Under the pieces are notes generated by a model that was given only the letters and a program-made list of their open reading frames with translations, was not told the origin of the DNA and made no database searches. A stretch of 64,000 nt of DNA from the IMG/VR virus record IMGVR_UViG_2513237361_000012, positions 17,300 through 81,299 of that record; one strand, given 5' to 3'. Positions 1 through 46,675 of the stretch are shown here, in pieces. This stretch comes from a virus (taxonomy: Duplodnaviria > Heunggongvirae > Uroviricota > Caudoviricetes). Within the stretch, counting starts at the first letter, position 1; each line of letters begins with the position of its first letter. The translations under genes were made by a program, and so were the position numbers.

Positions 1-6
1 ACCCCA

Positions 7-318
7 TCAGCCTTTCTCCGCTTCCCGGACAATCAGATTCGGCTCTGCCATCAGGCGGGTGGCAACCGCAGCGGTCACCGCCACATCCTCACCGGCATGT
101 GACCAGAAACGGCCACAGCGCCAGAACCCGTTTTCAGACACGGCCCGGACGTTCAGCCGGACAGGGGCGTCACCCTGTACAGTAACCGGGTCTTCAGCCG
201 GACGTGGTTCATTCGCCTGACCGTCAGCCACAATAACGTCTGCCAGCGGTGCCGGGTTTTCCTGTGCTGCGCTGTTCTTTGCGGCTTTCGCGCCTTTGGT
301 TCCTGCTTTTTCACTCAT
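7..318 (-). CDS. hypothetical phage head-region protein downstream of major head gene
   Basis: 103-aa ORF, co-oriented and immediately after the Mu T-like gene; no motif recognised. Confidence 0.4.
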   Translation of the reverse strand: MSEKAGTKGAKAAKNSAAQENPAPLADVIVADGQANEPRPAEDPVTVQGDAPVRLNVRAVSENGFWRCGRFWSHAGEDVAVTAAVATRLMAEPNLIVREAEKG

Positions 319-399
319 GACTCTGCCTTTTAAAAGGCAGTTAAAAGGGCATTCACAGCGCCTTTTAACTGCGGGTTACAACAGATTACGGATGACGGG

Positions 400-1302
400 T
401 TATGCCGGGGTGGTGATGAACGGACTGACCACGATGTCCACATCCTTGTACCAGATGTTGGAATCGCCGCCGTTAACCAGCATGGCGTCAATGATGCGCT
501 TCGCGGCTGCACGGTTTTTCGGCCCCACCACAAGGGTGGTCGGGCGGATGCCCAGCGGTTCACCGTTGGTGGCCTTCATACCCAGCAGCAGATTGCTGGC
601 CTTCTCGTAGTTCTCCGCTGTCAGTGCCGCACGGGAACCGACGGCGGTCTGCCAGAAGCCGAAGCCCGCATTGCAGCGACCGTCCACCCCGTAAAGGAAC
701 TCGTTATTCTTGAAGGTGTGCTCGCTGTTCAGATCATCCAGGGCTTCAAACTTAAAGGCGCGTCGCGTCTGCCAGATGATGGGTTTCAGTACCTGAGAAT
801 CATCAATCAGAAACCACGGTTCCCCCTGGTCTGATGCCGGGGTGCCGACAACGTTGCTGTATGTGCCGTCGCCCAGCGGGTGGTCTTCATCAAAGAAGTT
901 CTGACCGTCAAAACACAGGGTGTTAAACCCGGCACACAGCAGGGGGTAACACAGCTTGTCCGGGAACTCCGACGTCTGGCGGCCATAGCGTTCAGCGATA
1001 ATGCTGTACTGACCAATCTGATCGTCTTCAATGTGTTCGCGTTTAACGCGGATCGAACTTTCCCAGGTTTTGTTCGCAAGGGTGTAACCATAACCGTCCA
1101 GCGTTGCCATCTGACGGGCGCTGACCCATTCCTTAATCTCCGGTAAATCTTTCATCCAGCCGTAGGTATTGGAGGCGGACGAACTCGGGATTTCAGAGGC
1201 GATGCGCTGCCACTGTGGGGTGACACCACTCAGCCCACGGGTATAAGCGGCGCTCAGACAGGTGGTCAGCGCGTGAAGGACTTCGGAAGTGACTGCTCCC
1301 AT
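400..1302 (-). CDS. Mu T-like major head subunit
   Basis: 300-aa ORF following the I-like protease gene; size, position and sequence character match Mu gpT family. Confidence 0.75.
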   Translation of the reverse strand: MGAVTSEVLHALTTCLSAAYTRGLSGVTPQWQRIASEIPSSSASNTYGWMKDLPEIKEWVSARQMATLDGYGYTLANKTWESSIRVKREHIEDDQIGQYSIIAERYGRQTSEFPDKLCYPLLCAGFNTLCFDGQNFFDEDHPLGDGTYSNVVGTPASDQGEPWFLIDDSQVLKPIIWQTRRAFKFEALDDLNSEHTFKNNEFLYGVDGRCNAGFGFWQTAVGSRAALTAENYEKASNLLLGMKATNGEPLGIRPTTLVVGPKNRAAAKRIIDAMLVNGGDSNIWYKDVDIVVSPFITTPA

Positions 1303-2264
1303 CAGTTATTCTCCTGTTTCGGTTTAGCGGCGAGGAACTCTTCCCCGGTAATACCCATGCTGCGGCACATCGCCAGTTCGGCGTCGGTCAGTGTCTGCGC
1401 GGGTTTATCCTTGCCCTGGCTGGGCTTGTCGTTGTTCACCAGCGGCTGTGCACCTTTGGTGTATTCCGCAAACTGTTTGCGGCCTTCTTCCGTGCGGCAG
1501 GTGGCAAGGAACATGTCACGGTTTGCCGGGGCCACTTTTCCGGCTTCGATGGCCGCATCCACAAGCGCTTCTGCTTCCTTCTCCTCCAGTTGCTGAAGGC
1601 GTTGTTCTGCGGTTTCGGCACGGTTCAGTGCCAGATTGTGGGTTTCCACCGGTACAAACTTCGTCAGGTCAGGTGTCTGTGCGCGGTTCAGCGCCACCTG
1701 TTCGTTCTCCTGAAGTTGTTTAATGGCAGCCACGGTATCGTCCACCGTGGCAGATTCAGCCAGCCCAAGCAGGCCGGTGATTTGCACAGGTACTGTCATC
1801 GGGTTTTTCTCCGTATTCAGTGCAGGAAAGTCCAGGTTAGGTTTGTTGGTCAGCCCGACGCTGGACAGGCGCGTCACCACACCCTCCGCGTCAAAGAAAA
1901 ACGCCGGGCTGTAATAGCGGTAACGGCGTTCGCTCAGCATCCACCGGGCGTACTCGCTCCAGACAACACGGCCTTCAATGGTGCCGCTGTCCGTCACGCG
2001 CAGTTCTTCCACCCAGCCATACGCCGGGGCTTCATCACCGCGTTGCCCTTTAATTTCGGTGGCGTGTTCAATGTCCACCGGAATTTTGATGTCGGACGAG
2101 CGGGTGACCACCTCATGCGGATTGCGGTTAATCCACGTCCGGCCATCGCGCCCGGTGAACTCACCCGCAGGGACGAGTTCAAGCCATTCCGGCAGTTGAG
2201 CAGGTGTCAGCTCAGGGATGGGTTCTGGCAGGGAAAAACACAGCGCCAGCAGTTCCGGTTGCAT
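1302..2264 (-). CDS. Mu I-like head protease/scaffold protein
   Basis: 320-aa ORF between F-like and T-like genes; resembles Mu-like prophage I protein. Confidence 0.75.
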   Translation of the reverse strand: MQPELLALCFSLPEPIPELTPAQLPEWLELVPAGEFTGRDGRTWINRNPHEVVTRSSDIKIPVDIEHATEIKGQRGDEAPAYGWVEELRVTDSGTIEGRVVWSEYARWMLSERRYRYYSPAFFFDAEGVVTRLSSVGLTNKPNLDFPALNTEKNPMTVPVQITGLLGLAESATVDDTVAAIKQLQENEQVALNRAQTPDLTKFVPVETHNLALNRAETAEQRLQQLEEKEAEALVDAAIEAGKVAPANRDMFLATCRTEEGRKQFAEYTKGAQPLVNNDKPSQGKDKPAQTLTDAELAMCRSMGITGEEFLAAKPKQENN

Positions 2265-2313
2265 GTCAGTCTCCGTCGTTTGGGGTTACCGACGGTAAGT
2301 ATGCGGAAGGCAG

Positions 2314-2338
2314 AAAAAAAGCCGGATTTACCGGCTTC
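2314..2338 (-). terminator. rho-independent terminator-like hairpin (GCCGG-ATTTA-CCGGC plus T-run on minus strand)
   Basis: Perfect 5-bp GC stem followed by T7 on the minus strand; the identical 26-nt element recurs at 10047..10070. Confidence 0.5.
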
Positions 2339-2477
2339 ACTGAAAACGGGGAAATACCCCCTTCAAAACCCCTTCAAAAACGCCACAGCATCTTCAAAAA
2401 CGTCAGAATGCACATTCACGCCATCAGAATAAAAAACGCGTTTCTGATGCGTTTCAGGGGGATTTACGGCGGGAGGG

Positions 2478-3299
2478 TTACTCACTGTCAAAACGGGCCT
2501 GTTTTGTCGCCAGCTGGCGCGCCAGCTCCTGCTCACGGTTTATGCCGGGATTGTAGTTCCAGCCCGGATCAATCCCTTCCGGCACATCTTCCTCTTCGCC
2601 CGTGCGTTTGTTCACCCAGCGGACAGTTCTGATTTCCGGCGCTTCGGTGTGAATGGTGCCCTGTGCCGCCAGTTGCGCATATTCACCACGGCTGACCTGA
2701 CGGATGGTGCATTTGCAGCCCCAGCCGTTAGGGGCGAAATGCGTCTGCCAGAACGGGTGGTCTACAGGCAGACACAGACGCGCCCATTTCACATGCTCCG
2801 CCCGGTGGTCGCGGGATGGCCCCAGCTCGTAAATCAGATACGGCATGGCCCGCTTTGTCCGTTGAATGCGTTCCCACTGGCCCGCCGCGCGGGCGGTGCG
2901 CATGTTGGTATCGTAAATCGTGCGGAGGCGGCGGTCGCTGCCCAGCTGTACGGTTCGGGTTTCGCCCGTCAGCGGATCATCCATCTCCTGTACGCCCCAC
3001 CATCCGCGTTTTATCAGCAGCGGTTGCAGCGCCTCCCGGAACTCGCTGAACGTCTGCCCGCTTTGCAGGGCGTCTTCCACAAGGGCTTTCACATCCGACA
3101 ACAAATCCAGTTGCAGCATTTTTGCCACGGTGAAGCTGTTCCGGTGTTCTTCCCGCCATACATCCCGGTAATCAAAACCGGGGCGCAGCTTCTTCGCCTT
3201 CAGCCACGCCAGCGCCTCTTTCGGGATGAGAGTTTCACGCATGACCGGTGTCCCCCAGCGCACGCGCCTTAAAGCACACCTCCGCCAGTTGCAGGGCAA
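2478..3299 (-). CDS. Mu F-like (gp30) virion morphogenesis protein
   Basis: 273-aa ORF directly downstream of the portal gene, as in Mu; Mu F-like sequence character. Confidence 0.7.
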   Translation of the reverse strand: MPCNWRRCALRRVRWGTPVMRETLIPKEALAWLKAKKLRPGFDYRDVWREEHRNSFTVAKMLQLDLLSDVKALVEDALQSGQTFSEFREALQPLLIKRGWWGVQEMDDPLTGETRTVQLGSDRRLRTIYDTNMRTARAAGQWERIQRTKRAMPYLIYELGPSRDHRAEHVKWARLCLPVDHPFWQTHFAPNGWGCKCTIRQVSRGEYAQLAAQGTIHTEAPEIRTVRWVNKRTGEEEDVPEGIDPGWNYNPGINREQELARQLATKQARFDSE

Positions 3300-4805
3300 A
3301 GTCGTCCGCGTTCAGCGTTTCCTGAAGCTCAGGCAGGCGTTTCAGAAAGTCATCAAAACTGTCGCATTCCTGCGCCAGTGTCAGCACCGGGTTCGTGAAC
3401 GCCTCGCCGGTTTTCTGCCAGTCACGCAGGGCATCATCCACCATCTGTGCCAGTTCATCGGGGTGTTCCCGGTTCAGGGCGACGCGCTCGCGGTTCATCG
3501 CCACATCACCTGACATTCCGGCAGACACCGGATGCAGAACATCAGCCCCGTCGTCCGGTTCAGCCAGGCCGAACCGGTCCCGCAGCTCCGATTCCTGAAC
3601 CCGCATCCCCCGGTCAATCAGCGGCACCAGAGCATCTGTCAGCGCCTTCAGATCTTCCGCTTCACTGATACGCAGAACAACACGGGGGTAGTGTTCCTGT
3701 GGCCCGTAGTTGGCCTCGATGTAGGGCCGCACCAGATATTCATTCAGCGTGTTAGCCAGCTGCCGCGCGTCCCAGCGCACAATGTCCATGCGCACCTGAT
3801 TGTGCACGTCCGCCTGTGAACGCGAACTGCCGTTATCCGTGGTCATGGTCTGCCCCAGCACAGCCTTACTGATTTGCGCATCACACCATTCCGCCATTTC
3901 ACGGAACAGTGCGCCGCCGTTATTCCGGCTGGCGGTTTCCTTCATTTCCAGTTGCATGGACTGCGGAATGGCACACCCGGCATCCGAGGCAATGGAAGCA
4001 ATCGCATCAATCAGCACGCGGATTTGCTCCTCCGTGGCGTTGGGGCCGTATTTCCCCACCGTGACCGGAATGCCGAATTTTTCCGCAAATGCCCACCAGT
4101 CGCGCACGGTAAAGGATTTCAGCATGTACATCACCGCCACCAGACGGGCCAGACCGTTACGCAGCGGCAGACCGGATTTCAGACGCGGCTGGTGAACAAT
4201 GAATTTTCCCGGTGTCAGCGGTACGCCATCCACCGGTTCATCGTCAGTCAGCAGGCGGAACTGGCGCAGCGTGGGTTTTTCGGCTTTCAGAAAACGGGGA
4301 TCAACCCACTCATAATCACGGGGCACCCAGTGGTTGTTGCGGGTGTTCCACAAAATTTCACAGACCGCCACGCCTTTTCCCAGCCCGTCGAGCAGATCAA
4401 ACATCAGCTCAGGGATTTGCGGTGCCTCCATCAGTGCACGGATGGCGTCCGCCAGTTGCACGTCAGCATCGTCATCACTGGCGGCCACCACCACCGGTTC
4501 GATACCCGCCACCGTCAGCTTGCGGGTGCGCAGTACCGAGGCGTAATGCAAATCGCGTTCTTCCATCTCTTCAGCAAGGTAAAAAAATCACGCGTGATGC
4601 CGTCAGTAGCATTGCGCAGAATGCCTGCCAGCCTGCCGGGGTTCAGCCCGGAGGCGACGCTGATACCCGGCGAGGCCGAACGCACACCGGCATGACGCGG
4701 ACGGGCCTGTGCTTCGTTGAGCGCCTCTTTTTTCAGCGTGTCTTCCTCACCGGTTGCCGGGTTCAGCAGACGGCGAACGGCCCCGGCCAGTTGTTTCAGG
4801 TTCAC
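3235..4805 (-). pseudogene. Mu gp29-like portal protein, split by a frameshift into ORFs 4515..4805 (N-terminal 96 aa) and 3235..4566 (443 aa)
   Basis: Two overlapping ORFs in different frames; adding one base to the A7 tract at ~4581..4587 joins them into one ~520-aa reading frame. Confidence 0.55.
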
Positions 4806-6337
4806 AGTAAACCTCCCTCATTTTTCAGGCCGCGCGTCAGCTTCATCTGGCGGCGCGCGTTGCGTTCTTCCGGTTTCGCCGGGCGGTTCAGGCGGTGCAA
4901 CTCGTAACGGTGGCAGTCATCCTTGCTGGCAAGGAAGCCCAGGAAAATGGCCACAGCGGCGTCGCCGTGACGTTTGTGACCGTCGCTGCCTTTGGTTCGT
5001 GAATCATCAATGCCGGGAACGCCACGCAGTAACTGAATGGCTCCGAGGTCATTGATCACGTCTTCATGCTTCGGAAGGATCAGCTCATCATCTTCAAACG
5101 CCGCACGGAAACGGGGCATGTTTTCGCGGTAAAACGCCACGGACAGCATCACCTGTTCCACTTCATCGCCGTACCGCTCTGCCGCCTGTTCTGCCAGATA
5201 CTGACCATTCCCCCGCGCATCCATTTTGATGCCGTCACGGCGGGGCAGACGATCGCAAAGCCAGAACAGCACCTGCTCCTGCTGTTTAAACGGCACATTG
5301 CCAAGCTCAACCAGGAACGGCACCTCGCGGGTGGTGTCATCGTTCACCGTCACCGGGGCCAGTACGGTCAGGTCACCCGAACGCGCAAAGTCTTCCCCCA
5401 GACAGTGGCGCAGGTTCTTCGGGAGTTTTTCCAGTTCAGGGCGCACCACTGTTTCCAGCCATTCCCGGATATCTGCCCGGCGCTGGCTTTCCGTCAGTGC
5501 GTTAAATTCCGGTGTGCCGGTAAAGCGCAACACTTTCCCGGTGCCACGGGCCGCACGTTCACGCAGTGAGCGGGGGATATACGTGCCGCCGCCGTTTTTC
5601 GGGACGCAGTAATACTCCTCCAGCGCGTCTTCGCGGGTGGCGGTATTTCGCAGCAGGCCTTCTTTCCATTCCGCCTCGGCTTCCGGTGACCACACCATGC
5701 CGCGCACCTGACAGATACGTCGGTACAGCCCGTCATTGCAGGCGTCGTCCAGCGTGATGGTGTGAATGCTGTAATCTTTTTTGCCCGCGCGGCTTTCCTG
5801 AATAAGCTGATTAAACAGGTTGTCCACGCCGTCATGGGTGGAAATAAGGCGAATTTTGCCGCCCCATGTTTTCAGCGGCAGCACCGCCTTCAGCAGCTCG
5901 TCCAGTTTTTCATGGAACGCGGCCTCGTCGATGGTGACATTCCCCTGCATCCCGCGAATGTTGCTCGGGTTGCTGGACAGTGCCTTGACCTTAAAACCGC
6001 TGGCGAAGTACACGACGAACGTCAGAATGTCCTTGTCTTCGTCGGTGATCACTTCCTCGCAGATTTCTTCCGCTGCCGCATTAAACGCTTTCGCCCACAT
6101 CGCCACGGCGTCGATAAATTCGCGGGCCATCTCCTTATTCGAACCGATATAAAAGTGATCGCGCCCGCCGTCTTCCTTCTTCAGCGATGCCGTCAGTGCC
6201 GCATCTGCCGCCTCCGCCCAGGTTAAACCGGTACGGCGGGATTTCTCGGCGATTTTCAGGTCGGCATCATCCGCCACCCAGCGTTTCTGATACGGCAGCA
6301 GAACATCATATTCACTGAACGTGTCCATTTGTGTCAT
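4802..6337 (-). CDS. terminase large subunit (Mu gp28-like)
   Basis: 511-aa ORF between small-terminase-like and portal genes; terminase-like sequence character. Confidence 0.8.
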   Translation of the reverse strand: MTQMDTFSEYDVLLPYQKRWVADDADLKIAEKSRRTGLTWAEAADAALTASLKKEDGGRDHFYIGSNKEMAREFIDAVAMWAKAFNAAAEEICEEVITDEDKDILTFVVYFASGFKVKALSSNPSNIRGMQGNVTIDEAAFHEKLDELLKAVLPLKTWGGKIRLISTHDGVDNLFNQLIQESRAGKKDYSIHTITLDDACNDGLYRRICQVRGMVWSPEAEAEWKEGLLRNTATREDALEEYYCVPKNGGGTYIPRSLRERAARGTGKVLRFTGTPEFNALTESQRRADIREWLETVVRPELEKLPKNLRHCLGEDFARSGDLTVLAPVTVNDDTTREVPFLVELGNVPFKQQEQVLFWLCDRLPRRDGIKMDARGNGQYLAEQAAERYGDEVEQVMLSVAFYRENMPRFRAAFEDDELILPKHEDVINDLGAIQLLRGVPGIDDSRTKGSDGHKRHGDAAVAIFLGFLASKDDCHRYELHRLNRPAKPEERNARRQMKLTRGLKNEGGLL

Positions 6338-6936
6338 GCGCTAATCCCCAGAATTTCACGTTTGATGGTGTCAGCCGCACCGCCCGACAGACCGCCCGTT
6401 CTGACCAGCTCTTCGGTTTTCTCTGCCATCTCCTGCGCAAACGCATCGCGGATCGCTTTCTCGCGTTTATGGCTGGTCATGGCTGCCACTTCCAGACGCT
6501 GGGCAACCAGCGCCAGTTGGCCCAGCGCCTTCGGTGCAACAGGTTTGTCGTCTTCTGCCATCGACATGGACGTTTCAAAGGCCAGCGTTTTTACAAACTC
6601 CATCAGCAGCTTGCCGACGTCTGATGTTGGCGCGGAACCCAGCTTTGCCGCCCAGACTTCGGCCATTTCGCGGGAGGCACGGATTTTTGCCCCGACTTTT
6701 TCCATGCGGATGGCGTAGCGGTTTAAGCCCGTCCGGCTTAACTGCATCTCTTCCGGCAGGTTATGTTCGTCAATCAGGGCATTGATGGCTTCGCGGATTT
6801 CTTCCTGCGTGTGCCGCTTTTCCCGCAGCATCTGATGCAACTGCTCCCGGATGCTGTCCGGGAGTAAATCCACTTTGGAAAGACGGCCACGGGTGGGGCG
6901 TTGTTCATTTTCCATGTGTGCGCTCCTGTTGCTCAC
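6334..6936 (-). CDS. Mu gp27-like protein (putative terminase small subunit)
   Basis: 200-aa ORF immediately upstream of and overlapping the large terminase gene. Confidence 0.55.
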   Translation of the reverse strand: MSNRSAHMENEQRPTRGRLSKVDLLPDSIREQLHQMLREKRHTQEEIREAINALIDEHNLPEEMQLSRTGLNRYAIRMEKVGAKIRASREMAEVWAAKLGSAPTSDVGKLLMEFVKTLAFETSMSMAEDDKPVAPKALGQLALVAQRLEVAAMTSHKREKAIRDAFAQEMAEKTEELVRTGGLSGGAADTIKREILGISA

Positions 6937-7051
6937 TACGCTGTAAACTTTCGTATGCAGATTTCAGTGCGCCGTTCTGGATTTCCCGCCATGTCGGTTG
7001 TGCGCCAGACGGCGGAGTTCATCACGGGACGCTTTACTTATCGGATTCTTT

Positions 7052-7351
7052 TTACGGTTCACGACGGCCCCCGTCTTCAGTTCCCGGTGTTTTCAGACCG
7101 GCGTATATTTCTTCGCGAACGGAGCGGATATCCTTACCCAGCAGCTTCCACAGCCGCGCACATGCCGGTGATGAACGCAGGGCACGTTTCATGGGGGTAT
7201 CCGGTGCATCCGGGTTCCAGGGCTTTCCGGTCTGTTGTTCATATGCACGGGCGATGGCGTTTTTCTCAATATCCGCGAGCACAAGACAGTACGCCAGCTG
7301 CCGCACGACGGCCCGTTCTCCGCGACTTAACGGCTTCAGTTTTCGGGCCAT
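7052..7351 (-). CDS. hypothetical phage protein
   Basis: 99-aa ORF in operon context; no motif recognised. Confidence 0.35.
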   Translation of the reverse strand: MARKLKPLSRGERAVVRQLAYCLVLADIEKNAIARAYEQQTGKPWNPDAPDTPMKRALRSSPACARLWKLLGKDIRSVREEIYAGLKTPGTEDGGRREP

Positions 7352-7353
7352 GC

Positions 7354-7647
7354 TCAGTCCCTCGCACGGGGTTTTTTAACGCCCGGAACGCTGGACAGGC
7401 CGTTTGCCACATCCTCGCCGCTGCCGGTGATTTCAGCCACGTAACAGCCGCCCACATCAGACAGACGAACCAGCCCCTGCTCGCGCAGCCATGCAAGCTG
7501 GGTGCGCACCACATCACGGGATACCTTATGACCGTAGGCCTGAAGGCAGGTCTGCAACACGGATTCATTCGCGCTGTCGCCACAATCCAGCAGGGAACGC
7601 AGCAACACCAGACGACGGTCTTCAGTGAGGATCTCTTTCATCGCCAT
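7354..7647 (-). CDS. hypothetical phage protein (possible DNA-binding)
   Basis: 97-aa ORF, tightly packed with neighbours. Confidence 0.35.
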   Translation of the reverse strand: MAMKEILTEDRRLVLLRSLLDCGDSANESVLQTCLQAYGHKVSRDVVRTQLAWLREQGLVRLSDVGGCYVAEITGSGEDVANGLSSVPGVKKPRARD

Positions 7648-7952
7648 TAATTTTTTTCCTTTAACTCGTTCTCTAATAACAAATCGCTGATGCGGGATAC
7701 CTGGCGGATGGATGGCCCCAGCTCTTTGATTTCTCCCCGCAGGTTGCTGATATCCAGTTGCAGGCGGTGGAACTCATCACGATCAGGTAGCTGATGTACC
7801 TGGCTTTCCATCACCGACACGCGGGAACGCAGCAAATCAAACTCTTCGCGCTTGACGTAGGTCTTTGCCAGAATCAACTGAAGCAGGTTTATTCCTGTCA
7901 TCAGCAATGCCCACAGAATGGGCCAGTTGGCTCTGATCATTTCCCAGGACAC
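7647..7952 (-). CDS. phage membrane protein with coiled coil (possible spanin-like)
   Basis: N-terminal hydrophobic segment followed by a predicted coiled coil; located in the lysis-proximal cluster. Confidence 0.35.
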   Translation of the reverse strand: MSWEMIRANWPILWALLMTGINLLQLILAKTYVKREEFDLLRSRVSVMESQVHQLPDRDEFHRLQLDISNLRGEIKELGPSIRQVSRISDLLLENELKEKN

Positions 7953-8164
7953 GTTTTCCTCCTGCGTTCCCGCATCTGCTGACAGTCAATACAGGTCACC
8001 ACATCCGGCAGCGCCGCAAGGCGCTGTGCCGGAATAACGTTCCCGCAGTCATTGCAGAAGCCCCGGCTGTGGGGCGTTTCTTTTGTCCGTGTCTGCCAGG
8101 CTTTAACGACGCTCTGACGCTCGTTCAGAACCACTTCACTGATGCGATCGATTTCGTCGGTCAT
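7937..8164 (-). CDS. TraR/DksA-family C4 zinc-finger protein
   Basis: CNDCG...CIDCQ four-cysteine motif in a 75-aa protein. Confidence 0.6.
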   Translation of the reverse strand: MTDEIDRISEVVLNERQSVVKAWQTRTKETPHSRGFCNDCGNVIPAQRLAALPDVVTCIDCQQMRERRRKTCPGK

Positions 8165-8919
8165 TTCGGCCCCGCAGACATTTTGTGACGGCTTGATTTG
8201 CTGTAACGGGCAAAGCCGTCAAGGGTTCTTACACCGAGATAGCCCAGCGCCGGGGTAAGCAACATCAGCGTGATATCCCAGTCCGGTGATGGCATATGCA
8301 GCGTGATACCTCTGGCACCGGCAATGGCTCCGGCAATCTGGCCGCAGGAGAGCAACAGCACATAGGCCAGACTGCTGTAACAGGAAAGGCGGGCCAGCAG
8401 CGGGCGTGTCTGGCGCACATAGCTGTCCGTGGCGTTGTCACCATTGCGGATGGTTTCCTGCTGTTCGTGGTGTGCGGCCTGCTGGTCAGCCAGCACTAGC
8501 TTCTGCCGTTCCACCTCCAGCTGTTGCAACTGAATTTTCAGGGTTTCCATCTGCATCAGTTGCTCCGGTGACAGCATCACCAGTTTTTGTTCCAGAATGC
8601 GTTGCTGTTCAGCCACCGGCAGGCTTTCCCGGACACTTTCCACCATACCGGCCACCGAGTCAGCGGCGGCAGATGTGCTGCCACCAAACCAGCGCCCGAC
8701 GGAACGAATCAGCCCCGGCCCGGCTTTCAGCAGAACAGAGGCGATGCCTGAAAGGGTTAACGGATCCACGGGAAACCTCCATACAGATAACGCTGAAGAC
8801 AGAGCAGACCGCCGCAACTGCCACCGCACAGCCAGAACACCGGATGCACCGGTGACATCATCATCAGCGTGCTGAAGACGCAGCAGAAATATCCCAGCGC
8901 CCAGACCACCCATGACCAC
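8161..8919 (-). CDS. hypothetical phage protein (start uncertain; overlaps neighbour)
   Basis: 252-aa ORF with central coiled coil and C-terminal hydrophobic stretch; overlaps ORF 8757..9353, so true boundaries are unclear. Confidence 0.3.
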   Translation of the reverse strand: MVMGGLGAGIFLLRLQHADDDVTGASGVLAVRWQLRRSALSSALSVWRFPVDPLTLSGIASVLLKAGPGLIRSVGRWFGGSTSAAADSVAGMVESVRESLPVAEQQRILEQKLVMLSPEQLMQMETLKIQLQQLEVERQKLVLADQQAAHHEQQETIRNGDNATDSYVRQTRPLLARLSCYSSLAYVLLLSCGQIAGAIAGARGITLHMPSPDWDITLMLLTPALGYLGVRTLDGFARYSKSSRHKMSAGPK

Positions 8920-9353
8920 ACGATGATGTGGCGACCAAAAGCCCGGTAACGGACCTCAGGCAGCAGGCGAAATGGCACATTCCCGAGGCTTGCGCTGTAT
9001 GAAAACAACACCACCCCGGCAAAGGACAACAACATCAGCACGAACGATCGCCAGCCACATAACATGCTGATGATGAACATGCAGAGTGTCAGTCCGGCCA
9101 GTGGCCACGGCGTTCTCATCAGTCGGGAACAAAGCAGCCAGTCACACAGTTTTAAAATTTTGTTCATTACCTTTTTCCACATTGAATTTTTCCCTGTACT
9201 TCTGGCACTGCCAGAAAATGTCCCGTGTATCCACGGAGTTCCAGCCACGCATGTAGTAGCTGGCGTGTGTGCCATCATGGCCGGTATAGTCCAGCGGTTT
9301 CGGGGGCGGGCCTCCGGCCATGCGGTGCAGAACCTCCTGACGCAGGCGGTCAC
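8757..9353 (-). CDS. phage integral membrane protein (start uncertain)
   Basis: Multiple hydrophobic helices; lies directly downstream of the endolysin gene. Confidence 0.3.
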   Translation of the reverse strand: MTACVRRFCTAWPEARPRNRWTIPAMMAHTPATTCVAGTPWIHGTFSGSARSTGKNSMWKKVMNKILKLCDWLLCSRLMRTPWPLAGLTLCMFIISMLCGWRSFVLMLLSFAGVVLFSYSASLGNVPFRLLPEVRYRAFGRHIIVWSWVVWALGYFCCVFSTLMMMSPVHPVFWLCGGSCGGLLCLQRYLYGGFPWIR

Positions 9354-9394
9354 GCCGCCCGGTTTTCAGTGAGGCATCCCAGCCTTTGCCCATA

Positions 9395-9991
9395 TCACCC
9401 CCGCGTGGCGGACATGATGCCCAGAGGGGTATCGATGATTTCCAGACAGGCGTCGGTCAGTTTTTCCATGCGGTTAAACCAGCCGTTCAGGTATTTGCCC
9501 TGGGCGGGTTTTGATTTGATGATGTCGGCATAAAAGCGGGAACGACGGACAATGCAGCGGGCCAGCAGCCAGTCCGGGGAGGACAGGCTCACGGCCTTGC
9601 GGGTACGCGGGCCGATGATGCCGTCAGCATCCACATCAGCGGCTTCCTGCAAAATCCTGATGGCTTTTTTAACGCCATGCTGAACCGCCGCATCGAACAC
9701 AAACATCGCCACGCCATCAGGCCACTGGTCACATCCGGCAGGCAGCCAGTAATCGCGCCAGTAAATCTGCGCAACCTGTTCGCGGGTTAAATCCTTAATG
9801 CGGGTATCCGGTTTGCCGTCACCGTTGACATCGGTTTTGCCGTCAATCACACCGTCGCGGCGGTCAGAAATGCCGTATTTGGTTTCACCGCCGCTGTCTG
9901 TGGGGTCATTGACATAGCCGCCTTCAATATCAGGACGCAGAATAAAATTCAGCGCATGTTCAAAGGCCGGGGAGAATTTTTGATTTTCCAT
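9395..9991 (-). CDS. endolysin, GH108-type lysozyme with peptidoglycan-binding domain
   Basis: N-terminal EGGY..D..GG.TKYGI motif typical of glycoside hydrolase family 108, followed by a PG-binding-like C-terminus. Confidence 0.7.
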   Translation of the reverse strand: MENQKFSPAFEHALNFILRPDIEGGYVNDPTDSGGETKYGISDRRDGVIDGKTDVNGDGKPDTRIKDLTREQVAQIYWRDYWLPAGCDQWPDGVAMFVFDAAVQHGVKKAIRILQEAADVDADGIIGPRTRKAVSLSSPDWLLARCIVRRSRFYADIIKSKPAQGKYLNGWFNRMEKLTDACLEIIDTPLGIMSATRG

Positions 9992-10046
9992 AAAAGCACC
10001 TGTGAAGCAGATTTAAACGTGGTCTGCTTCATGGTGCCGGAGGCAT

Positions 10047-10070
10047 AAAAAAAGCCGGATTTACCGGCTT
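10047..10070 (-). terminator. rho-independent terminator-like hairpin downstream of mor
   Basis: Same GCCGGATTTACCGGC hairpin plus T-run as at 2314..2338. Confidence 0.5.
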
Positions 10071-10076
10071 CATTGA

Positions 10077-10526
10077 TTAAGGGCGTCGTGGCGGACGACG
10101 AACGGGATGAGGCAGATTCGGGGAGTGGTAAAACAAATCCGGCTGGTATTTATTACGCTCCAGACGTCGCATCCGTTTGATGGCCTTGTAGACAGTTTTA
10201 TATGTCACTCCGTAACGCTGAACCAGTTCAGGAATATTATGGCCGTTAAAATCACGCCAGATACGCATATCCCGGACAAGATTCTCCAGAATATTCCCCC
10301 TCGGAACATAAACCTGCATCCCGCCGATATGGCGACAAATCGCCACAACCAGCTCAAGGGAATGGGCAGGGTCTGCGCCAATCCGGGCCAGCTCTTTACG
10401 CAGCAGTGCGTTCAGTTCAGAAAGTAACGCCGGATAAGCGGTGTTTTCCTGATAATCATGAAGGTATTCCAGAACGCTGTCGTCCCGGAGGTCTTCGAAT
10501 AAATCCTGCTCTTTCATCTGTTTCAT
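10077..10526 (-). CDS. mor: Mor/C-family transcriptional activator
   Basis: 149-aa protein with Mor/C-like C-terminal HTH region (YGVTYKTVYKAI); positioned after gemA as in Mu. Confidence 0.75.
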   Translation of the reverse strand: MKQMKEQDLFEDLRDDSVLEYLHDYQENTAYPALLSELNALLRKELARIGADPAHSLELVVAICRHIGGMQVYVPRGNILENLVRDMRIWRDFNGHNIPELVQRYGVTYKTVYKAIKRMRRLERNKYQPDLFYHSPNLPHPVRRPPRRP

Positions 10527-11074
10527 ACAGCAATTCTCCCGCTGTTTCGTGCGCGGGCATATGCACTGGTCATTGCATCATAGCCGCGCAGTTCCCGCCC
10601 GGTTTCGCTCACAGGTAAAGGCACACCATGTCGGACAAAGGCTTCCCGGATGCAGCGCATATGCCACTGTTTGAGCGTTTCGAGCACAACATGCAACGAT
10701 TCCCCGTGACACCAGGCCAGCGTGGAAACACCCTGACCACCATTACGTCTGGCCGTCAGGCGTTCAACGTATTTGTCCAGCGCGGCGTCGCTGATATCGG
10801 AGACGAAACCATCAAGAAACATCTGCTGCCAGATTTTATAAATCTTCTCGCGCGGTGTGACATGCTCCTTAAAGCGACGGCGGGGATGTTTTTTCTGCTT
10901 CTTAAAACCGCGCTCTTTCATGGCATCGAGCACCTGTTCCAGTTGTGCGACAGTCAGTTCGCGGCAACTGGTCTTGCCTGTGCACTGCACCAGAAAGGCG
11001 CGGTAAGTGTCATCGTCGAGTTGTAGATCACGACGGGCAACATGAATTAACTTAATAAGCGATGTGCGACTCAT
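10523..11074 (-). CDS. gemA: GemA (Mu gp16)-like protein
   Basis: Start taken at MSRTSLIK (aa 53 of the track ORF); DUF1018/GemA-like sequence; position before mor. Confidence 0.65.
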   Translation of the reverse strand: MSRTSLIKLIHVARRDLQLDDDTYRAFLVQCTGKTSCRELTVAQLEQVLDAMKERGFKKQKKHPRRRFKEHVTPREKIYKIWQQMFLDGFVSDISDAALDKYVERLTARRNGGQGVSTLAWCHGESLHVVLETLKQWHMRCIREAFVRHGVPLPVSETGRELRGYDAMTSAYARARNSGRIAV

Positions 11075-11104
11075 TTTGTCACCTCTCATATTAAGGAATG
11101 AGAT

Positions 11105-11509
11105 ATGAAAATTGATTACGATGAACTGGCAAGAATCCTTGATACTTTCCTGAATGCAGACAGCGCATTTATTACCCTTAAGGATGTTGGAATCGACACA
11201 ACCGACGATGAAGATAAACTGATATTTCATTTATTACTGCTCGTCGAAAATGGTCTTATCGGTAACAGAGAACTGCAAACTGGCACCCCGGAGTGCATCG
11301 GTCTGAAGTTCACCACAACAGGTATTGGCTGGCGAAACGTACCAATAAGGCTGACTCAGGACGGACATGATTTTGCCAATGCATTGCATCAAAAACCTAT
11401 TCTTGAACGAATCAAAAAAGAATTTGCCGAAGCCCCGTTTGATGTTGTCAAAGACCTCGGCAAGGGGTTTTTAACTCAGTTATTTAAAAAGAAACTCGGT
11501 ATTGAATAA
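11105..11509 (+). CDS. hypothetical protein on the opposite strand within the Mu early region
   Basis: 134-aa ORF with RBS AAGGAA upstream; opposite orientation to the whole early operon. Confidence 0.45.
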   Translation: MKIDYDELARILDTFLNADSAFITLKDVGIDTTDDEDKLIFHLLLLVENGLIGNRELQTGTPECIGLKFTTTGIGWRNVPIRLTQDGHDFANALHQKPILERIKKEFAEAPFDVVKDLGKGFLTQLFKKKLGIE

Positions 11510-11815
11510 CTCCTTACTCATTCGCTGTAGCACATCAAGGGCGGCAACTGCCGCCACTTTATCCTGACCGGCAATGATTTTTCGTAATTCCTCAATAATC
11601 CAGGCATGGCTTAATGATTCAGCAATCATCGTGCGTTTTTCTGAAATTAAATTTTCTCTGGCCTGCTCATAGTGCTGGTATACAACATTATCCAGAAAAT
11701 AATTTACATCTTGTTCTGACATGCCACTGGAAATTAAGGTTGCAGCCATTAAATCAGCATCAGTAATCATCTGTATTTTCATTTCGTAATACCTCTTCGC
11801 AATAAAAGACTTCAT
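11480..11815 (-). CDS. hypothetical Mu semi-essential-region protein
   Basis: 111-aa ORF in early operon. Confidence 0.35.
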   Translation of the reverse strand: MKSFIAKRYYEMKIQMITDADLMAATLISSGMSEQDVNYFLDNVVYQHYEQARENLISEKRTMIAESLSHAWIIEELRKIIAGQDKVAAVAALDVLQRMSKELFNTEFLFK

Positions 11816-11949
11816 TGGGATAACGTTTTTGTATGCGCTCCATCACCTGCATACATGCCTGCTCTGTGGGCCAGATTTTTTCCGTTACCGGAATGGCATC
11901 GCAGGCATCATTCCCACAAGTGCCAACCAGCAGGACAAAGCCAATTGAC

Positions 11950-12489
11950 TTAATCATGCTCGCTGATTTCCTGTGTTTCCGCCGGAACCGGTGAATAATC
12001 AAGAATGAGATAGCGCAGGACGTGGTCGGTGATATTCCAGCCACTGGAACCACAAATAAAGCGCCCCAGCCGGATATCGATATACGCCATCACAAAACGG
12101 GGCATCCCCTGTTTGCACATCTCGTCATCCACTTCAGCAACGATGTAAACCGACTCGCAGGTCAGTACGCCTGTCGCAAATTCTTTTGCCAGTGCCGGAA
12201 TGGCATTGCCTTCCAGCCAGGGCAAAGAGCGGCGGAACGCGCACCATTGAGCATCATCAACAGCGGGGTGCTCCGTTGCGTTTCGTCTTACAGGAGGCGT
12301 CGGACGAGGGCGCGGAACGTCATAAAATCCGTTGCATTCAGTGAGAACTCCGGCATCAACCGCATCACGCAGGAAATACACCATTGAGGAAGGTGGCATC
12401 TTCATTTTTTCAGCCAGAACGCCACAGGTCAGACGCCCGTAACCCCGTAGTAATGTGCTGACACCGTTCAGAATTTTTGCATCAATCAT
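11950..12489 (-). CDS. hypothetical Mu semi-essential-region protein
   Basis: 179-aa ORF in early operon. Confidence 0.35.
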   Translation of the reverse strand: MIDAKILNGVSTLLRGYGRLTCGVLAEKMKMPPSSMVYFLRDAVDAGVLTECNGFYDVPRPRPTPPVRRNATEHPAVDDAQWCAFRRSLPWLEGNAIPALAKEFATGVLTCESVYIVAEVDDEMCKQGMPRFVMAYIDIRLGRFICGSSGWNITDHVLRYLILDYSPVPAETQEISEHD

Positions 12490-12586
12490 TTTTATTTCTC
12501 AGATATCAGATTCAGGCGCGAGCAATCCCCTGACGCATCGCGCCATAATTAAAAGAAAGTGAATTAATTAAATATTCGTGGTGGTA

Positions 12587-13111
12587 TTAAATACCGGCTT
12601 CCTGTTCAAACGGAATAATAGAAAAATCTTCAATACCTGATTTGACTGTAATTCCGGCAACACCTGCGACCGCTTTCGGTTCCAGTAAAATCGCTTCCTT
12701 GTTGATTTCCTGTTTCGTGCGAATAAAGCGTTGCAGGCCAAGACGCTCCAGCGTTTCCATCACCGCATCCACACCGCGAATACTTACCGATGGTGGGCGC
12801 TGACGCCATGACACATCACCGGTTACCAGGTTTGCCGTCTTCACCTTGCCGCCGTTCGTCAGTTCGTCACGGTTCGCTTCACACCACCCCTGAACGCCTT
12901 TTGAAAGGGTTTCAATACTGGTTTTAAGGGGTGCAATCTGTGAGGCGTATTTCTCCGTAATCTCAGCGATAGCGTCATTCATCTCCGTTTCAAGCCGTGC
13001 CGCTTCGCGTTGCAGGTCACCAATCCGGCGAATATCACATACCACGGCATCGCGGGATTGTGGAACATAAGCCGCTGCGGCGTTCTTGATTCGTTTTGCT
13101 GGTTTAGCCAT
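12587..13111 (-). CDS. gam: host-nuclease inhibitor Gam (Mu-type)
   Basis: 174-aa protein; size, position and sequence character match Mu Gam. Confidence 0.75.
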   Translation of the reverse strand: MAKPAKRIKNAAAAYVPQSRDAVVCDIRRIGDLQREAARLETEMNDAIAEITEKYASQIAPLKTSIETLSKGVQGWCEANRDELTNGGKVKTANLVTGDVSWRQRPPSVSIRGVDAVMETLERLGLQRFIRTKQEINKEAILLEPKAVAGVAGITVKSGIEDFSIIPFEQEAGI

Positions 13112-13131
13112 ATAAATAAAGCTCCTGTTAA

Positions 13132-13431
13132 TTAATATTCGCTGTATACAATGCTGGATACAGCACGATTGCTTAATTCCATCTTTTGGGCTATCACATG
13201 AATAGCCACCCCTTCTTTATAAAGTTCACGACACAAATATTTGTCGTGCTCACTGACCCGGTATGCACACAACGATATTCCGTGCCTTCTGGCATGTGCC
13301 TGTAGGGCGGTTGGGGCAACGTTCAGTTTTTTCGCCATTTCCTCGACGGTCATTTTTCCGACACTGGCTTCGATAAATTCCCGGTCTTCGCGTGACCAGC
13401 GTTTACGCTTACACATCATTCCGGTCACCAC
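13132..13431 (-). CDS. hypothetical HTH-containing protein
   Basis: 99-aa ORF with HTH-like segments. Confidence 0.35.
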   Translation of the reverse strand: MVTGMMCKRKRWSREDREFIEASVGKMTVEEMAKKLNVAPTALQAHARRHGISLCAYRVSEHDKYLCRELYKEGVAIHVIAQKMELSNRAVSSIVYSEY

Positions 13432-13851
13432 TCAGTACAACAGGGGTTCGCGCAGTGATGCCGGAATATGCCGCAGCGATAACTGAACCGCTTTCAAGGC
13501 AAGGGAAGAATACGTCCCCTGCGTCCAGCCTTTCGCCATTTGCCGGTAATCGCGCCAGATGTTCTGCCACTGCTCCCGTGCGTCCGGGTCTGACGCGCTG
13601 ATGTATTCGCGGTCCATGACGTATTCCCATAAATCCTCGTTAAACGCACCGCCAAACGTGATGGCATTAGAGATGTTTTCACCACAATAACGCGCACAAA
13701 TGCTGTAATGGTCAAATGTAATCAGATAAGTAGTTTCACCATGCTCATAAACTTTGCGGGTGAAAATAAACTCGCGTAATTCACCACCGTTGTTATTGCG
13801 TTCCTGAATTCGGATTAATGCCTGAATTTCATTTCGGATTTTGACGTTCAT
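13432..13851 (-). CDS. hypothetical protein
   Basis: 139-aa ORF in early operon. Confidence 0.35.
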   Translation of the reverse strand: MNVKIRNEIQALIRIQERNNNGGELREFIFTRKVYEHGETTYLITFDHYSICARYCGENISNAITFGGAFNEDLWEYVMDREYISASDPDAREQWQNIWRDYRQMAKGWTQGTYSSLALKAVQLSLRHIPASLREPLLY

Positions 13852-13871
13852 TGTCAGCGTTCCTTTGTGAA

Positions 13872-14141
13872 TTAATGTCTGGCTGCATTCGGGTTATAGC
13901 TGAATAATTCCCCCTCGGCTTCCAGCCCAAGCTCCTTGGCTGATTTCAACAACTCCTCGGTCGCTTTTTTAATGATTTCAGGAGCCATGCTCTTGATGAT
14001 GCCTGCCATTACATCATGTGGCCCGGTCTGGTCCTCAGGTGAGGATTCTTCCAGTCGCACATTCATATTTACGGCAAAACCTCCATTTTCCTGAAACTCA
14101 ATATTTCTTGTATTGTTAAATTCAAAGATTACTTTTGCCAT
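13872..14141 (-). CDS. hypothetical protein
   Basis: 89-aa ORF in early operon. Confidence 0.3.
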   Translation of the reverse strand: MAKVIFEFNNTRNIEFQENGGFAVNMNVRLEESSPEDQTGPHDVMAGIIKSMAPEIIKKATEELLKSAKELGLEAEGELFSYNPNAARH

Positions 14142-14152
14142 TTTGTTTCACC

Positions 14153-14407
14153 TTATTGATTCTGAATAATTGTGCTGACCTTTACCTTCGCGCCTTCTAC
14201 CTGTTTAAAGAAAACACCACTGCACCACGGGCAACATGTGAAAGAGTCCCATACTTCATTTTCGGGGGAACTTTGCGTCATAAGCTGTTCACCACATCCC
14301 GGGCATTTATATGTCGTCAAAGGCACTCCGTGGCGCTGACAATGTTTAACCCACTCAATATATTTTCCAGACCTGATACTCATCGTTATCTCCAGATAAT
14401 CTGACAA
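14153..14407 (-). CDS. zinc-ribbon protein
   Basis: CPGCG...CCPWC cysteine motifs. Confidence 0.35.
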
Positions 14408-14613
14408 CCATTAAGACGGGCCGTCCATACTGAACGGGCAACCCCTGATTTATGCTCCATAATCCTGACAGCGTTTCTGACCAGCTCCGGTGGCGGGCAG
14501 GTGATTTCAAGTACCGGGCGGGCCACGCCCAGCCAGGATTCGTTGACGTGGCTGCCGCGCTCCTGTAACCAGGTCTTTACTTCCGTCGCCATTTTGATAT
14601 TACGAGACATCAT
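14386..14613 (-). CDS. kil: Kil-like protein
   Basis: 75-aa ORF directly downstream of B, the position and size of Mu kil. Confidence 0.45.
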
Positions 14614-14625
14614 GGTTTGTGTTCC

Positions 14626-15579
14626 TTACTGCCAGTTCAGTAACTTAGGGTTGCTGTAAGCCTCCTTAAAAGCCGCTTTAATGTGACTTTTATTCAGGGA
14701 TGAACCAGCACCTTTCGCCGCCAGCCACGCATGATTCAGTGTGTGAGTTAATACACGCAATCCCCCGGGCTTTTCGGCTACCCTCATCAACAGATCCAGC
14801 TCATCTTCCTGTGTTACTCCCCATGCTTTGGCTACAGCCATCACGTCGGTTTTTTTCACTTTGCGCAGTTGTTTCGTCATGGCAAAACGGCTGAACAGAC
14901 GGGCCAGCTCATCAGTCCCACGACGGGTGGCATCCGCCATCTGTTTCGGGTTGCCAATTAAAACCATCCCCACGCCAGTGGCATCCTGAATGGCGCGTAA
15001 TTGCTCCAGACCATCCACACTTAAGTGATCAGCTTCATCAATAATCAGCAGGGGGTTAACACGGCCACTAATTTCTTTACCACCGCCCAGTTTTCTGCGA
15101 ATGGCGCGGGTTATATTCCCCTTATTTCTTCCCGGATTATTAATTTCCAGCGCATATGCTATTTCAAGGAGACATTCCGTAACGCTCGAATGTGCCGGAG
15201 CAAGCGTCACCATCCAGGCATTAGCTGTTTTGCGGCAATATTCCCGTGCAGCAAAAGTTTTGCCGACACCCGGTACGCCAACAACAACACTGATAATCCC
15301 GAGTGAGCGCACTGTTTTAAACAGCTCATGCAAATCACAAAATGTCTGGGTCTTCACAACGCCGGGGGCACCTGACAAATTCTGCCCTTTTTGCCAGACC
15401 CGATACCATTCCTGTAATTTGTCATGCATGCCTTCAACATTGCCTCTGTACTTTCCTTTACGAAGATCAGAAAGTGTTGCCGGAGACATTCCGGCCTCAT
15501 CAGCAATATCTTCCTGGGACTTGTCGCCCTCGTTAATCAAAGCGTTAATAGTGTTGAAAACATCATCAATATCAGTCAT
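14626..15579 (-). CDS. B: MuB-like transposition ATPase
   Basis: N-terminal HTH, Walker A GVPGVGKT, Walker B LLIIDEAD; follows the transposase gene. Confidence 0.85.
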   Translation of the reverse strand: MTDIDDVFNTINALINEGDKSQEDIADEAGMSPATLSDLRKGKYRGNVEGMHDKLQEWYRVWQKGQNLSGAPGVVKTQTFCDLHELFKTVRSLGIISVVVGVPGVGKTFAAREYCRKTANAWMVTLAPAHSSVTECLLEIAYALEINNPGRNKGNITRAIRRKLGGGKEISGRVNPLLIIDEADHLSVDGLEQLRAIQDATGVGMVLIGNPKQMADATRRGTDELARLFSRFAMTKQLRKVKKTDVMAVAKAWGVTQEDELDLLMRVAEKPGGLRVLTHTLNHAWLAAKGAGSSLNKSHIKAAFKEAYSNPKLLNWQ

Positions 15580-15654
15580 AGTATCTCCTCCATCATTACA
15601 GATTTACTTTATTTTCCTTGTTTAACAGTCCGTTACCGCGGACTGTTTTTTTAT

Positions 15655-17742: not shown

Positions 17743-17744
17743 TT

Positions 17745-18017
17745 TTACGCCACCTTACGAACGTAGCGGCTGGGCCAGATCTCCTCCGGAGCCACACCGA
17801 TAGCATCAGCAATAATGCGCTCATACTTAGGGCATTTGCGGTACAAGGCATTCTTTAAAGAATCCTTGTTTAAACCTGCTTCAACTGATAGTGAACGCAA
17901 AGTAAAGCCTTTCACATGCACCGCAGCGACAACATGTGCCGGGTGCCAGTCCTGTTTTACAACTTCATTTATAGACATCATTCGTTTATCCTTAAAAGTT
18001 ATCTGCGCGGATAACAC
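17745..18017 (-). CDS. ner: Ner-like DNA-binding regulator
   Basis: 90-aa Ner-family HTH protein immediately upstream of A. Confidence 0.75.
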   Translation of the reverse strand: MLSAQITFKDKRMMSINEVVKQDWHPAHVVAAVHVKGFTLRSLSVEAGLNKDSLKNALYRKCPKYERIIADAIGVAPEEIWPSRYVRKVA

Positions 18018-18121
18018 CGCCGGATAATCTCTACAGATAAATATTTGATCACTACAAAAGAAAAGTAAAGGGCTTTAATCTCTTTCTTTGGTGATTTTTA
18101 TCTACATAAGGATAAATACTT

Positions 18122-18709
18122 ATGAATCATACAGTTAAGAGAAAAGAAAAAAACGATAAAAAAGAAAGTGATTTTTCTTTTCCAGCATTTCAAAAAGAAA
18201 GCATCAAGGAACGACTGGCAAAGTTAATGCGTGGTCGGTCTAAAACCGCAGTTGCGAAAGCGTGGGGGCTTCCATTCTCTACACTTAATAACTATTTTGA
18301 GAAAGATGCGATACCATCTCTACAAGTAGCTAGCCAGATAGCTTTTGCAGAAGGAGTAAGTATTGATTGGCTTGTTTTTGGTAAGGTAGAGGCAGAGTCG
18401 TTACATCCTCAAACAGATAACAACGCCCAGAACCAACCACTCGATATCACACAACAACGCCTCCTGGCTATTCTGAGTGCCCTGGAATCACCGGAGGCTG
18501 AGCGGTTGTCCAAACTCCTGGCACTAAATGGAGCCAAATACTTGTCGCGCTTACTGGAACCTGAGAACCAAGAGTTGATCCAATTAGAAGGGCGAAAACG
18601 AGCAGCGGCACTACTTCTAGATAATCTATCTGATGATAGAGTTAGAGAGATTTTGGCAGAAATTGAAGCTAGTAATCTCTCGCACAGTTTAAAAGCGAAG
18701 GCAGGTTGA
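18122..18709 (+). CDS. c: Mu-type c repressor
   Basis: 195-aa protein divergent from ner, with HTH segment (KTAVAKAWGLPFSTLNNY); operator region between c and ner. Confidence 0.7.
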   Translation: MNHTVKRKEKNDKKESDFSFPAFQKESIKERLAKLMRGRSKTAVAKAWGLPFSTLNNYFEKDAIPSLQVASQIAFAEGVSIDWLVFGKVEAESLHPQTDNNAQNQPLDITQQRLLAILSALESPEAERLSKLLALNGAKYLSRLLEPENQELIQLEGRKRAAALLLDNLSDDRVREILAEIEASNLSHSLKAKAG

Positions 18710-18953
18710 CTTCATTGGCCTGCCTTTAGAGCTTCTTTAAAATCAAATTTAGAGCCAATACTGATGTTTTGAAGGGCTTTCAAACTATCGAAAGGTACGG
18801 CGCGCCTATCTTGAATATGTTGTCGATTGTGGCGCATTGAACTTTTTTTGATGCCTCCTATCTTGAATCTAATAGACATCTAACTTATTGAATCCCATCA
18901 AATCCCGCCTTTTCTAATCTCTTCCCGGTTATCTTGAATAAATTACCTAGTCA
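18710..18953. repeat. Mu-like left end (attL) with repeated transposase-binding-like motifs
   Basis: Reverse complement reads TG...ACCGGGA(A/G)G...CGGGAT.TGATGGGATT, closely resembling my recollection of the Mu left end; ATCTTGAAT recurs three times. Confidence 0.55.
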
Positions 18954-32110: not shown

Positions 32111-34043
<1,933 letters not shown>

Positions 34044-46500: not shown

Positions 46501-46675
46501 GTTTTGGGTTTAGCGTGACAAGTTTGCGAGGGTGATCGGAGTAATCAGTGAATAGCTCTCCGCCAACAATGACGTCATAACCATGATTTCTGGTTTTCTG
46601 ACGTCCGTTATCAGTTCCCTCTGACCACGCCAGCATATCGAGGAACGCCTTACGTTGATTATTGATTTCCACCAT
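46358..46675 (-). pseudogene. R: lambda R-type endolysin, N-terminal 98 aa only (C-terminus lost at junction with P2 H)
   Basis: [35 protein letters not shown]... matches lambda R to ...DAVALQQ, then ends after 7 unrelated residues. Confidence 0.8.

Follow-up and report, generated by a model that had tools for sequence, protein, structure and literature searches.

The window, that is the whole stretch of 64,000 nt analysed here, comes from AEME01000001.1 (GCA_000208565.2), a record of Escherichia sp. TW09308, a clade V (E. marmotae) isolate from water in Michigan. Window positions 1..18953 (minus strand) hold part of a Mu-like prophage, which runs here from the left end, with the repressor, as far as the head genes; the tail genes fall outside, past window position 1, and the right end, with any 5-bp target duplication, is off-window as well. 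The early region, upstream of the head genes, encodes Gam, GemA, Mor, a MuB-type ATPase, a MuA-type transposase of 695 residues, a Ner-like protein and a repressor. Pfam matches to Mu-transpos_C, HTH_Tnp_Mu_1 and Phage-MuB_C, and a left end that starts with TG at the host junction, identify the element as a transposable prophage. On the minus strand at 18953 this left end begins TGACTAGGTAATTTATTC, and TGACTAGG... / TGACTAGGTAATTT... abuts the truncated host gene ybjI. YbjI is a HAD-family phosphatase, and the gene into which the prophage is inserted lies at 18951-19472 on the minus strand. Its remnant has 173 codons and covers positions 1-166 of the 255 positions of Pfam Hydrolase_3. In E. 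coli NCTC8623 ybjI is intact and stands beside ybjJ, rcdA and a DUF4917 gene.

Two further prophages share the window. A P2-like prophage (22000-46382), with an integrase at 22629..23804 and a CI repressor at 24044..24619, differs from its counterpart in NCTC8623 by 6 mismatches in about 24 kb, while identity between the two bacteria drops to about 90% in the host genes beside it (19000-21500). Together these figures point to a recent phage transfer between Escherichia species. Inside this prophage, window 32214-34043 on the plus strand encodes a reverse transcriptase of 609 residues (PF00078), the NCTC8623 counterpart of which is annotated as a retron Ec67-family reverse transcriptase/endonuclease. 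The P2-like match ends inside a tail-fibre gene (45319..46500). Beyond it (junction region about 46383-47580, with no runs of N) comes a lambdoid prophage, represented by its early and regulatory part, with genes for the Q antiterminator, NinG, a DnaB-like helicase, the O protein, a CI-type repressor and SieB; ERF and anti-RecBCD genes are found further on. At this junction the draft pseudomolecule may show a real rearrangement, or two contigs may have been joined there.

The portal gene and its two open reading frames

The head module of the Mu-like prophage is ordered terminase large subunit, portal, Mu F, protease and gpT, the last being the major head protein. The terminase large subunit gene (4802..6337, minus strand, PF03237) lies directly upstream of the portal gene. 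It is intact and encodes 511 residues that are 99.4% identical, over the full length, to the protein of E. coli RM11911. Its stop codon overlaps the GTG start of the portal gene in the sequence GTGA. At the other side, the start of an intact gene for a Mu F-like minor head protein of 254 residues (2478..3242, minus strand) overlaps the 3′ end of the portal gene.

The portal gene itself (3235..4805, minus strand) is a homologue of Mu gp29, also named gpH (DUF935, PF06074). It measures 1571 nt in the window, compared with 1572 nt and 523 residues in the intact form, and no uninterrupted full-length portal coding sequence exists there, for a 1-nt deletion splits it into two open reading frames of 96 and 443 codons. 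This pair, with its shared segment 4515..4566, had been described in the original prediction and is present on the minus strand in the list of open reading frames. The 96-codon frame (4515..4805, minus strand) starts at the GTG and consists of 75 native portal residues followed by 21 out-of-frame residues (TLLKRWKNAICITPRYCAPAS) and a TGA. The 443-codon frame (3235..4566, minus strand) starts at an ATG and corresponds to residues 81–523 of the intact protein, its first residue being Met81. A GAAGAG abuts this ATG; judged by reading the sequence, there is no well-spaced Shine-Dalgarno element. Searched with tblastn, the RM11911 portal matches the window in frame −3 with residues 1–77 and in frame −2 with residues 74–523.

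The 443-residue product matches the Pfam family PF06074 (Portal_Mu) with an E value of 5.7e-104 and a score of 348.5 bits, where the cut-off is 23.9, and the match spans positions 7–336 of the 336 in the model. The 96-residue product has no Pfam match of its own; it holds the conserved N-terminal motif, which can be aligned with Mu gp29 (from residue 37) and with gp32 of the Mu-like Pseudomonas phage JBD30 (from residue 24). With phmmer, the intact RM11911 homologue matches Mu gp29 (9khx) with an E value of 4.2e-51 over residues 51–476, and JBD30 gp32 (8rka) with an E value of 1.3e-49 from query residue 37. Homology to both solved portals thus begins upstream of the break. Mu gp29, known from the cryo-EM structures 9khx and 9knu, likewise belongs to PF06074, and its gene stands between those for the terminase and the Mu F homologue; it is an intact and distant homologue, and its N-terminal extension differs from that of the window portal. 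JBD30 gp32 is a homologous portal too, but JBD30 is a siphovirus, and its portal is intact and only a distant relative. The earlier naming of the gene as the portal of a Mu-like prophage is therefore correct, given the PF06074 and 9khx matches and the accompanying genes for MuA, MuB, Ner-like protein, Gam, Mor, GemA, Mu F, protease and gpT. By profile, homology and position the gene is a member of the Mu-type portal family, but it is a pseudogene and not a functional member.

Intact relatives of the portal gene

Close relatives of the portal gene were found in 47 E. coli complete-genome records at 90–99% identity. A single open reading frame spans the site in 46 of the 47 records, with 523 codons or, in RM9088, 519. 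By annotation RM11911, PSS-15, STEC383 and RM9088 each carry one DUF935 coding sequence of 519–523 residues. The 519-codon portal of RM9088 (L005) has lost 12 nt in frame, some 40 nt downstream from the T run described below, and is nevertheless annotated as intact. Two metagenome contigs (L011 and L012), retrieved by a pattern search that admitted both alleles, also have the intact form, and 12 more contigs, reached via the head proteins, carry a portal call of 523 residues. A pattern scan for both alleles had no match among the contigs of GTDB species representatives; this prophage variant is evidently absent from them. In the phage collection the sole match was a distant one, to Klebsiella phage Kp4866-3 (74%), which is uninformative for the site.

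The RM11911 protein (WP_052924209.1, DUF935 domain-containing protein, 523 residues) comes from the same prophage family, with the same gene order and the same run of seven T. Still closer is the copy on a contig of ERR12450820 (L022). The window portal, with its missing base restored, shows no amino-acid difference from the ERR12450820 copy and three from RM11911. Both have the intact allele; in the window one base is gone, the T of the ATC codon for Ile76, and the reading frame is split into 96 and 443 codons.

The one pseudogene among the E. coli records is that of 23CRST050 (L004). Its DUF935 gene is annotated by PGAP as a frameshifted pseudogene; it belongs to the same family, and here too an indel has inactivated the gene within a resident prophage. 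Its lesion lies elsewhere in the gene; the T7-ATC position is intact there, unlike in the window.

Position of the deletion

Alignment, BLAST and base-by-base comparison with the relatives place the deletion junction between window positions 4579 and 4580, where 1 nt, an A on the plus strand, is missing. On the coding strand this is the T of ATC, the second base of the Ile76 codon, one base past a run of seven T. The coding strand of the window reads ...ACG CGT GAT TTT TTT ACC TTG CTG AAG AGA TGG... across the junction. The relatives have GAT TTT TTT ATC CTT GCT (D-F-F-I-L-A) at this place, compared with GAT TTT TTT A-C CTT GCT in the window. In the upstream frame the junction is translated as ...GITRDFFTLLKRWKNAICITPRYCAPAS* (with * for a stop), and in the other frame as ...*FFYLAEEMEERDLHYASVLRTRK..., which is open to the end of the 443-codon frame. 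On the plus strand the ancestral sequence is GGATAAAAAAA and that of the window GGTAAAAAAA. At the place where the window has TTTTTTTACC, the five E. coli relatives that were aligned have TTTTTTTATCC.

A query of 81 nt over the site matches a span of 82 nt in all 47 E. coli complete-genome records, with identities of at most 98.8%. No match reached 100%, and the deletion allele is absent from all 47. The deletion is thus the derived state.

The A7 run to which the split had been ascribed is found at 4581..4587 of the plus strand, that is T7 on the coding minus strand (GA[T TTT TTT]), and its length is unchanged relative to the relatives. The relatives examined have the same seven bases with one exception, GAC TTT TTT, in which a synonymous change leaves six. 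The difference is hence not a variant of homopolymer length: the run is seven bases long in both window and relatives, and the indel lies outside it. The original prediction located the frameshift within the A7 run, which is not borne out, as the extra base of the relatives sits just outside a run of equal length. Its proposed repair, one base added to A7 (GGTAAAAAAAA on the plus strand), does give a continuous frame of 523 codons, yet with Tyr at residue 76 in place of the ancestral Ile. Since the ancestral run has seven bases, raw reads with A8, which had been named as the sign of a simple assembly error, are beside the point.

Support for the deletion in other read sets

One reading of the split gene is that the strain truly has ATC and that the 2011 draft assembly dropped a base beside a homopolymer. 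Such an origin has some arguments for it: the missing base is two positions from the 7-base run, and all three single-base differences from the nearly identical copy described below are bases missing in TW09308. The deletion allele was, on the other hand, also assembled from two other runs. The Logan assembly of SRR29904084 yields exactly the 96-residue and 443-residue products, on a contig of 6149 nt that has 1 mismatch in 6011 nt and carries the deletion allele. That of SRR29904083 contains a 2767-nt contig with the 96-codon frame. This support is at the level of assemblies and holds if TW09308 was re-sequenced, but fails if the reads were simulated from the GenBank record.

The P2-like prophage offers a second view of the quality of the draft. 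Along window positions 22000 to 46382 (approximately), the comparison with NCTC8623 shows, beside the 6 substitutions, three indels, and in all three the run is longer in the window and shorter in NCTC8623. The window thus lacks not a single base over these 24 kb, and the idea of a generally deletion-prone assembly was rejected. With the homopolymer length itself correct and the identical deletion allele assembled from SRR29904084 and SRR29904083, an assembly error is very improbable. The sequencing error at a homopolymer, considered at first, finds no support in an ancestral run length and a deletion allele present in the assemblies of two further runs.

Age of the deletion and probable decay of the prophage

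The ERR12450820 contig contains the same prophage with 99.967% identity over 20,963 nt. Over this length the TW09308 copy (L023) and the ERR12450820 copy (L022) differ by 4 substitutions and 3 single-base gaps, and all of the gaps are on the TW09308 side. A comparison of the early region (window 5656-18955) with that of the ERR12450820 copy (L026) shows 3 substitutions and the deletion at about 6995 described next. In total, the TW09308 and ERR12450820 copies are separated by 5 substitutions and three 1-nt deletions.

The second deletion, AACC[T]GAC, lies at about 6995 (window 6964-7062, minus strand), as seen against RM11911, two metagenome contigs and ERR12450820. It shortens a conserved frame from 52 codons to 32; this frame is situated between a gene of 99 codons and the gp27-like (DUF3486) gene. 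A look-up of the exact 32-residue product returned no record. The third deletion, GGCGG[C]GGTGG, is at position 19213 of L023, about 6.9 kb to the left of window position 1. It splits the DNA-circularisation gene (Mu gpN-like, PF07157) into products of 359 and 83 residues instead of one of 424. The intact alleles at the three sites are ATC in the portal gene, CCTGAC at about 6995 and GGCGGCGG in the DNA-circularisation gene. None of the three deletions lies in a repeat, and of the three it is the portal site for which independent data on the deletion are at hand. Compared with RM11911, the remaining head, lysis and early genes of the window have their full length.

Three 1-nt deletions beside 5 substitutions is an unusually high proportion for natural divergence and looks somewhat like the pattern left by assembly errors. 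The ratio of indels to substitutions is 3 to 4 over the 20,963 nt and 3 to 5 with the early region added, and it counts in favor of the assembly-error reading weighed above. Decay under relaxed selection is the simplest reading of the three deletions.

At the corresponding prophage end, the ERR12450820 copy is flanked by other host sequence than the TW09308 copy, indicating that it is an independent insertion of an intact phage. As an intact phage has been circulating, the one that entered the TW09308 lineage must have carried a working portal gene, and the portal deletion arose in the prophage, after lysogeny. Prophage decay had been one of the origins considered for the split, and it is supported by a deletion that is derived, unique to this lineage, present in the assemblies of two further runs and accompanied by two other 1-nt deletions. 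The split of the portal gene is very probably a genuine and recent single-base deletion, and the gene an ordinary young pseudogene in a Mu-like prophage that is starting to decay.

Possible frameshifting at the T run

A slippery run directly before a deletion raises the question of whether the two frames are joined during expression. The sequence GA[T TTT TTT]ACC contains a perfect in-phase −1 slippery heptamer of the form X_XXY_YYZ (U_UUU_UUU), with codon phase 0 at GAT. Immediately upstream of the run the −1 frame is closed by a TGA (cgTGAttt), and after the run it is open; the stop of the 0 frame follows 21 codons downstream of the run. As computed from the sequence, a −1 slip on the run would produce the full-length portal with I76Y as its sole change, the trans-frame peptide being ...DFFYLAEEMEER. 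No stimulatory structure was found downstream: a fold of 126 nt has a z score of −0.73, and 50 of 200 shuffled sequences fold at least as well. Reading of the sequence upstream revealed no Shine-Dalgarno-like (GGAGG-like) element.

The strongest form of this idea, that the layout of two frames is the normal way in which the phage family expresses its portal, by −1 frameshifting or transcriptional slippage, has the perfect heptamer at the junction as the sole point in its favor. All relatives, namely the E. coli records, the two metagenome contigs and the further contigs, have one uninterrupted frame at the site, and the only E. coli pseudogene, that of 23CRST050, has the undamaged T7-ATC sequence. 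In the intact relatives, slipping to −1 on the run would lead to a stop after 3 codons (TAT CCT TGC TGA), and a stimulator is lacking. A programmed −1 frameshift was accordingly rejected, the layout being unconserved and the heptamer being unaccompanied by any stimulatory element; as the regular mode of expression, recoding is extremely improbable.

A weaker form accepts the deletion as real, but supposes that a −1 ribosomal slip, or addition of a U by the RNA polymerase, gives some full-length I76Y portal and hence a low yield of portal-containing heads, while a T7-to-T8 slip in replication would create a heritable pseudo-revertant. The T TTT TTT heptamer in X_XXY_YYZ phase directly before the deletion fits this proposal, as do the −1 frame that is closed before the run and open after it and the 0-frame stop 21 codons on. 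In E. coli the motif U_UU.U_UU.U causes more than 0.10% of −1 frameshifting without stimulators (Sharma et al., PMC4066793), and H_HH.U_UU.Y motifs are among the efficient ones when a stimulator is present (PMC4066793). Residue 76 is variable, with Asp in Mu and Glu in JBD30 at the place of the Ile, so that a Tyr may be tolerated. There is precedent for compensatory low-level frameshifting at a run beside an indel (Atkins et al., PMC5009743). The G7 run of the herpesvirus thymidine kinase likewise has a frameshifting indel beside a slippery run with a possible frame-restoring −1 shift, and at the −1 sites of dnaX and of IS elements, which are slippery runs in bacteria, a −1 shift changes the frame (PMC5009743, PMC4066793). 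The TW09308 portal differs from the herpesvirus G7, dnaX and IS sites in showing no sign of use or selection, no stimulator and no conservation, and the likeness is confined to the mechanistic possibility.

Against leaky expression stand the z score of −0.73 for the downstream fold and the missing upstream Shine-Dalgarno-like element. U_UUU_UUU is also far less shifty in E. coli than A_AAA_AAG (Atkins et al., PMC5009743). Moreover, the DNA-circularisation gene is frameshifted too, so rescue of the portal alone would not restore infectivity. We consider leaky expression of this kind unlikely. The further suggestion that the gene is a 'pseudo-pseudogene' by chance, in which slippage supplies a trickle of I76Y portal and the T7-to-T8 slip acts as a genetic ON switch of low frequency, so that head production is throttled rather than abolished, appears quite unlikely as well. 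The 'slippage-prone site' offered as an explanation in the original prediction is neither the cause of the lesion nor a programmed site; what stands of it is that the run could act as a suppressor site, through a −1 slip of the ribosome, a slip of the RNA polymerase or a T7-to-T8 change, each leading to I76Y.

Expected consequences for the prophage

With the portal gene taken as a young pseudogene, ribosomes starting at the normal GTG would add 75 native residues, pass into the +1 frame and stop after 21 aberrant residues. The 443 codons from Met81 onward would have to be translated without a good ribosome-binding site, and their product would be devoid of the conserved N-terminal segment of the portal. 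From the poor start signal and the lost segment, little or no functional portal is expected, and neither of the two products should be able to build one.

In the JBD30 portal the N-terminal residues R13 and R18 contact DNA, and N-terminal basic residues touch the packaged DNA and the inner surface of the capsid. For Mu gp29, trimming in the course of head assembly is reported at the C-terminus, and the structure lacks the last 124 residues there, which are missing or cleaved. The possibility that the N-terminal loss in the window mimics the normal maturation cleavage of Mu gpH was therefore rejected.

In the absence of a portal the dodecameric vertex would not form, and DNA packaging, head-tail joining and the production of infectious particles would all fail. 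We infer the loss of portal function and of particle production in the TW09308 prophage. The broken portal gene and the broken DNA-circularisation gene together imply a prophage that is defective for particle formation. The transposition, regulatory and lysis genes look intact in their sequences, and transposition and lysis may still be possible.

For annotation, the two open reading frames should be treated as one frameshifted portal pseudogene, and this Mu-like prophage should count as defective, at least two of its virion genes being broken. The importance beyond annotation is small. The case has some value for teaching, in that a frameshift adjoining a homopolymer is easily blamed on the run, and here the relatives show the run to be untouched. 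It also illustrates cleanly how prophage decay sets in at its very start, with a prophage that is 99.97% identical to an intact copy inserted independently and differs from it mostly by inactivating 1-nt deletions.
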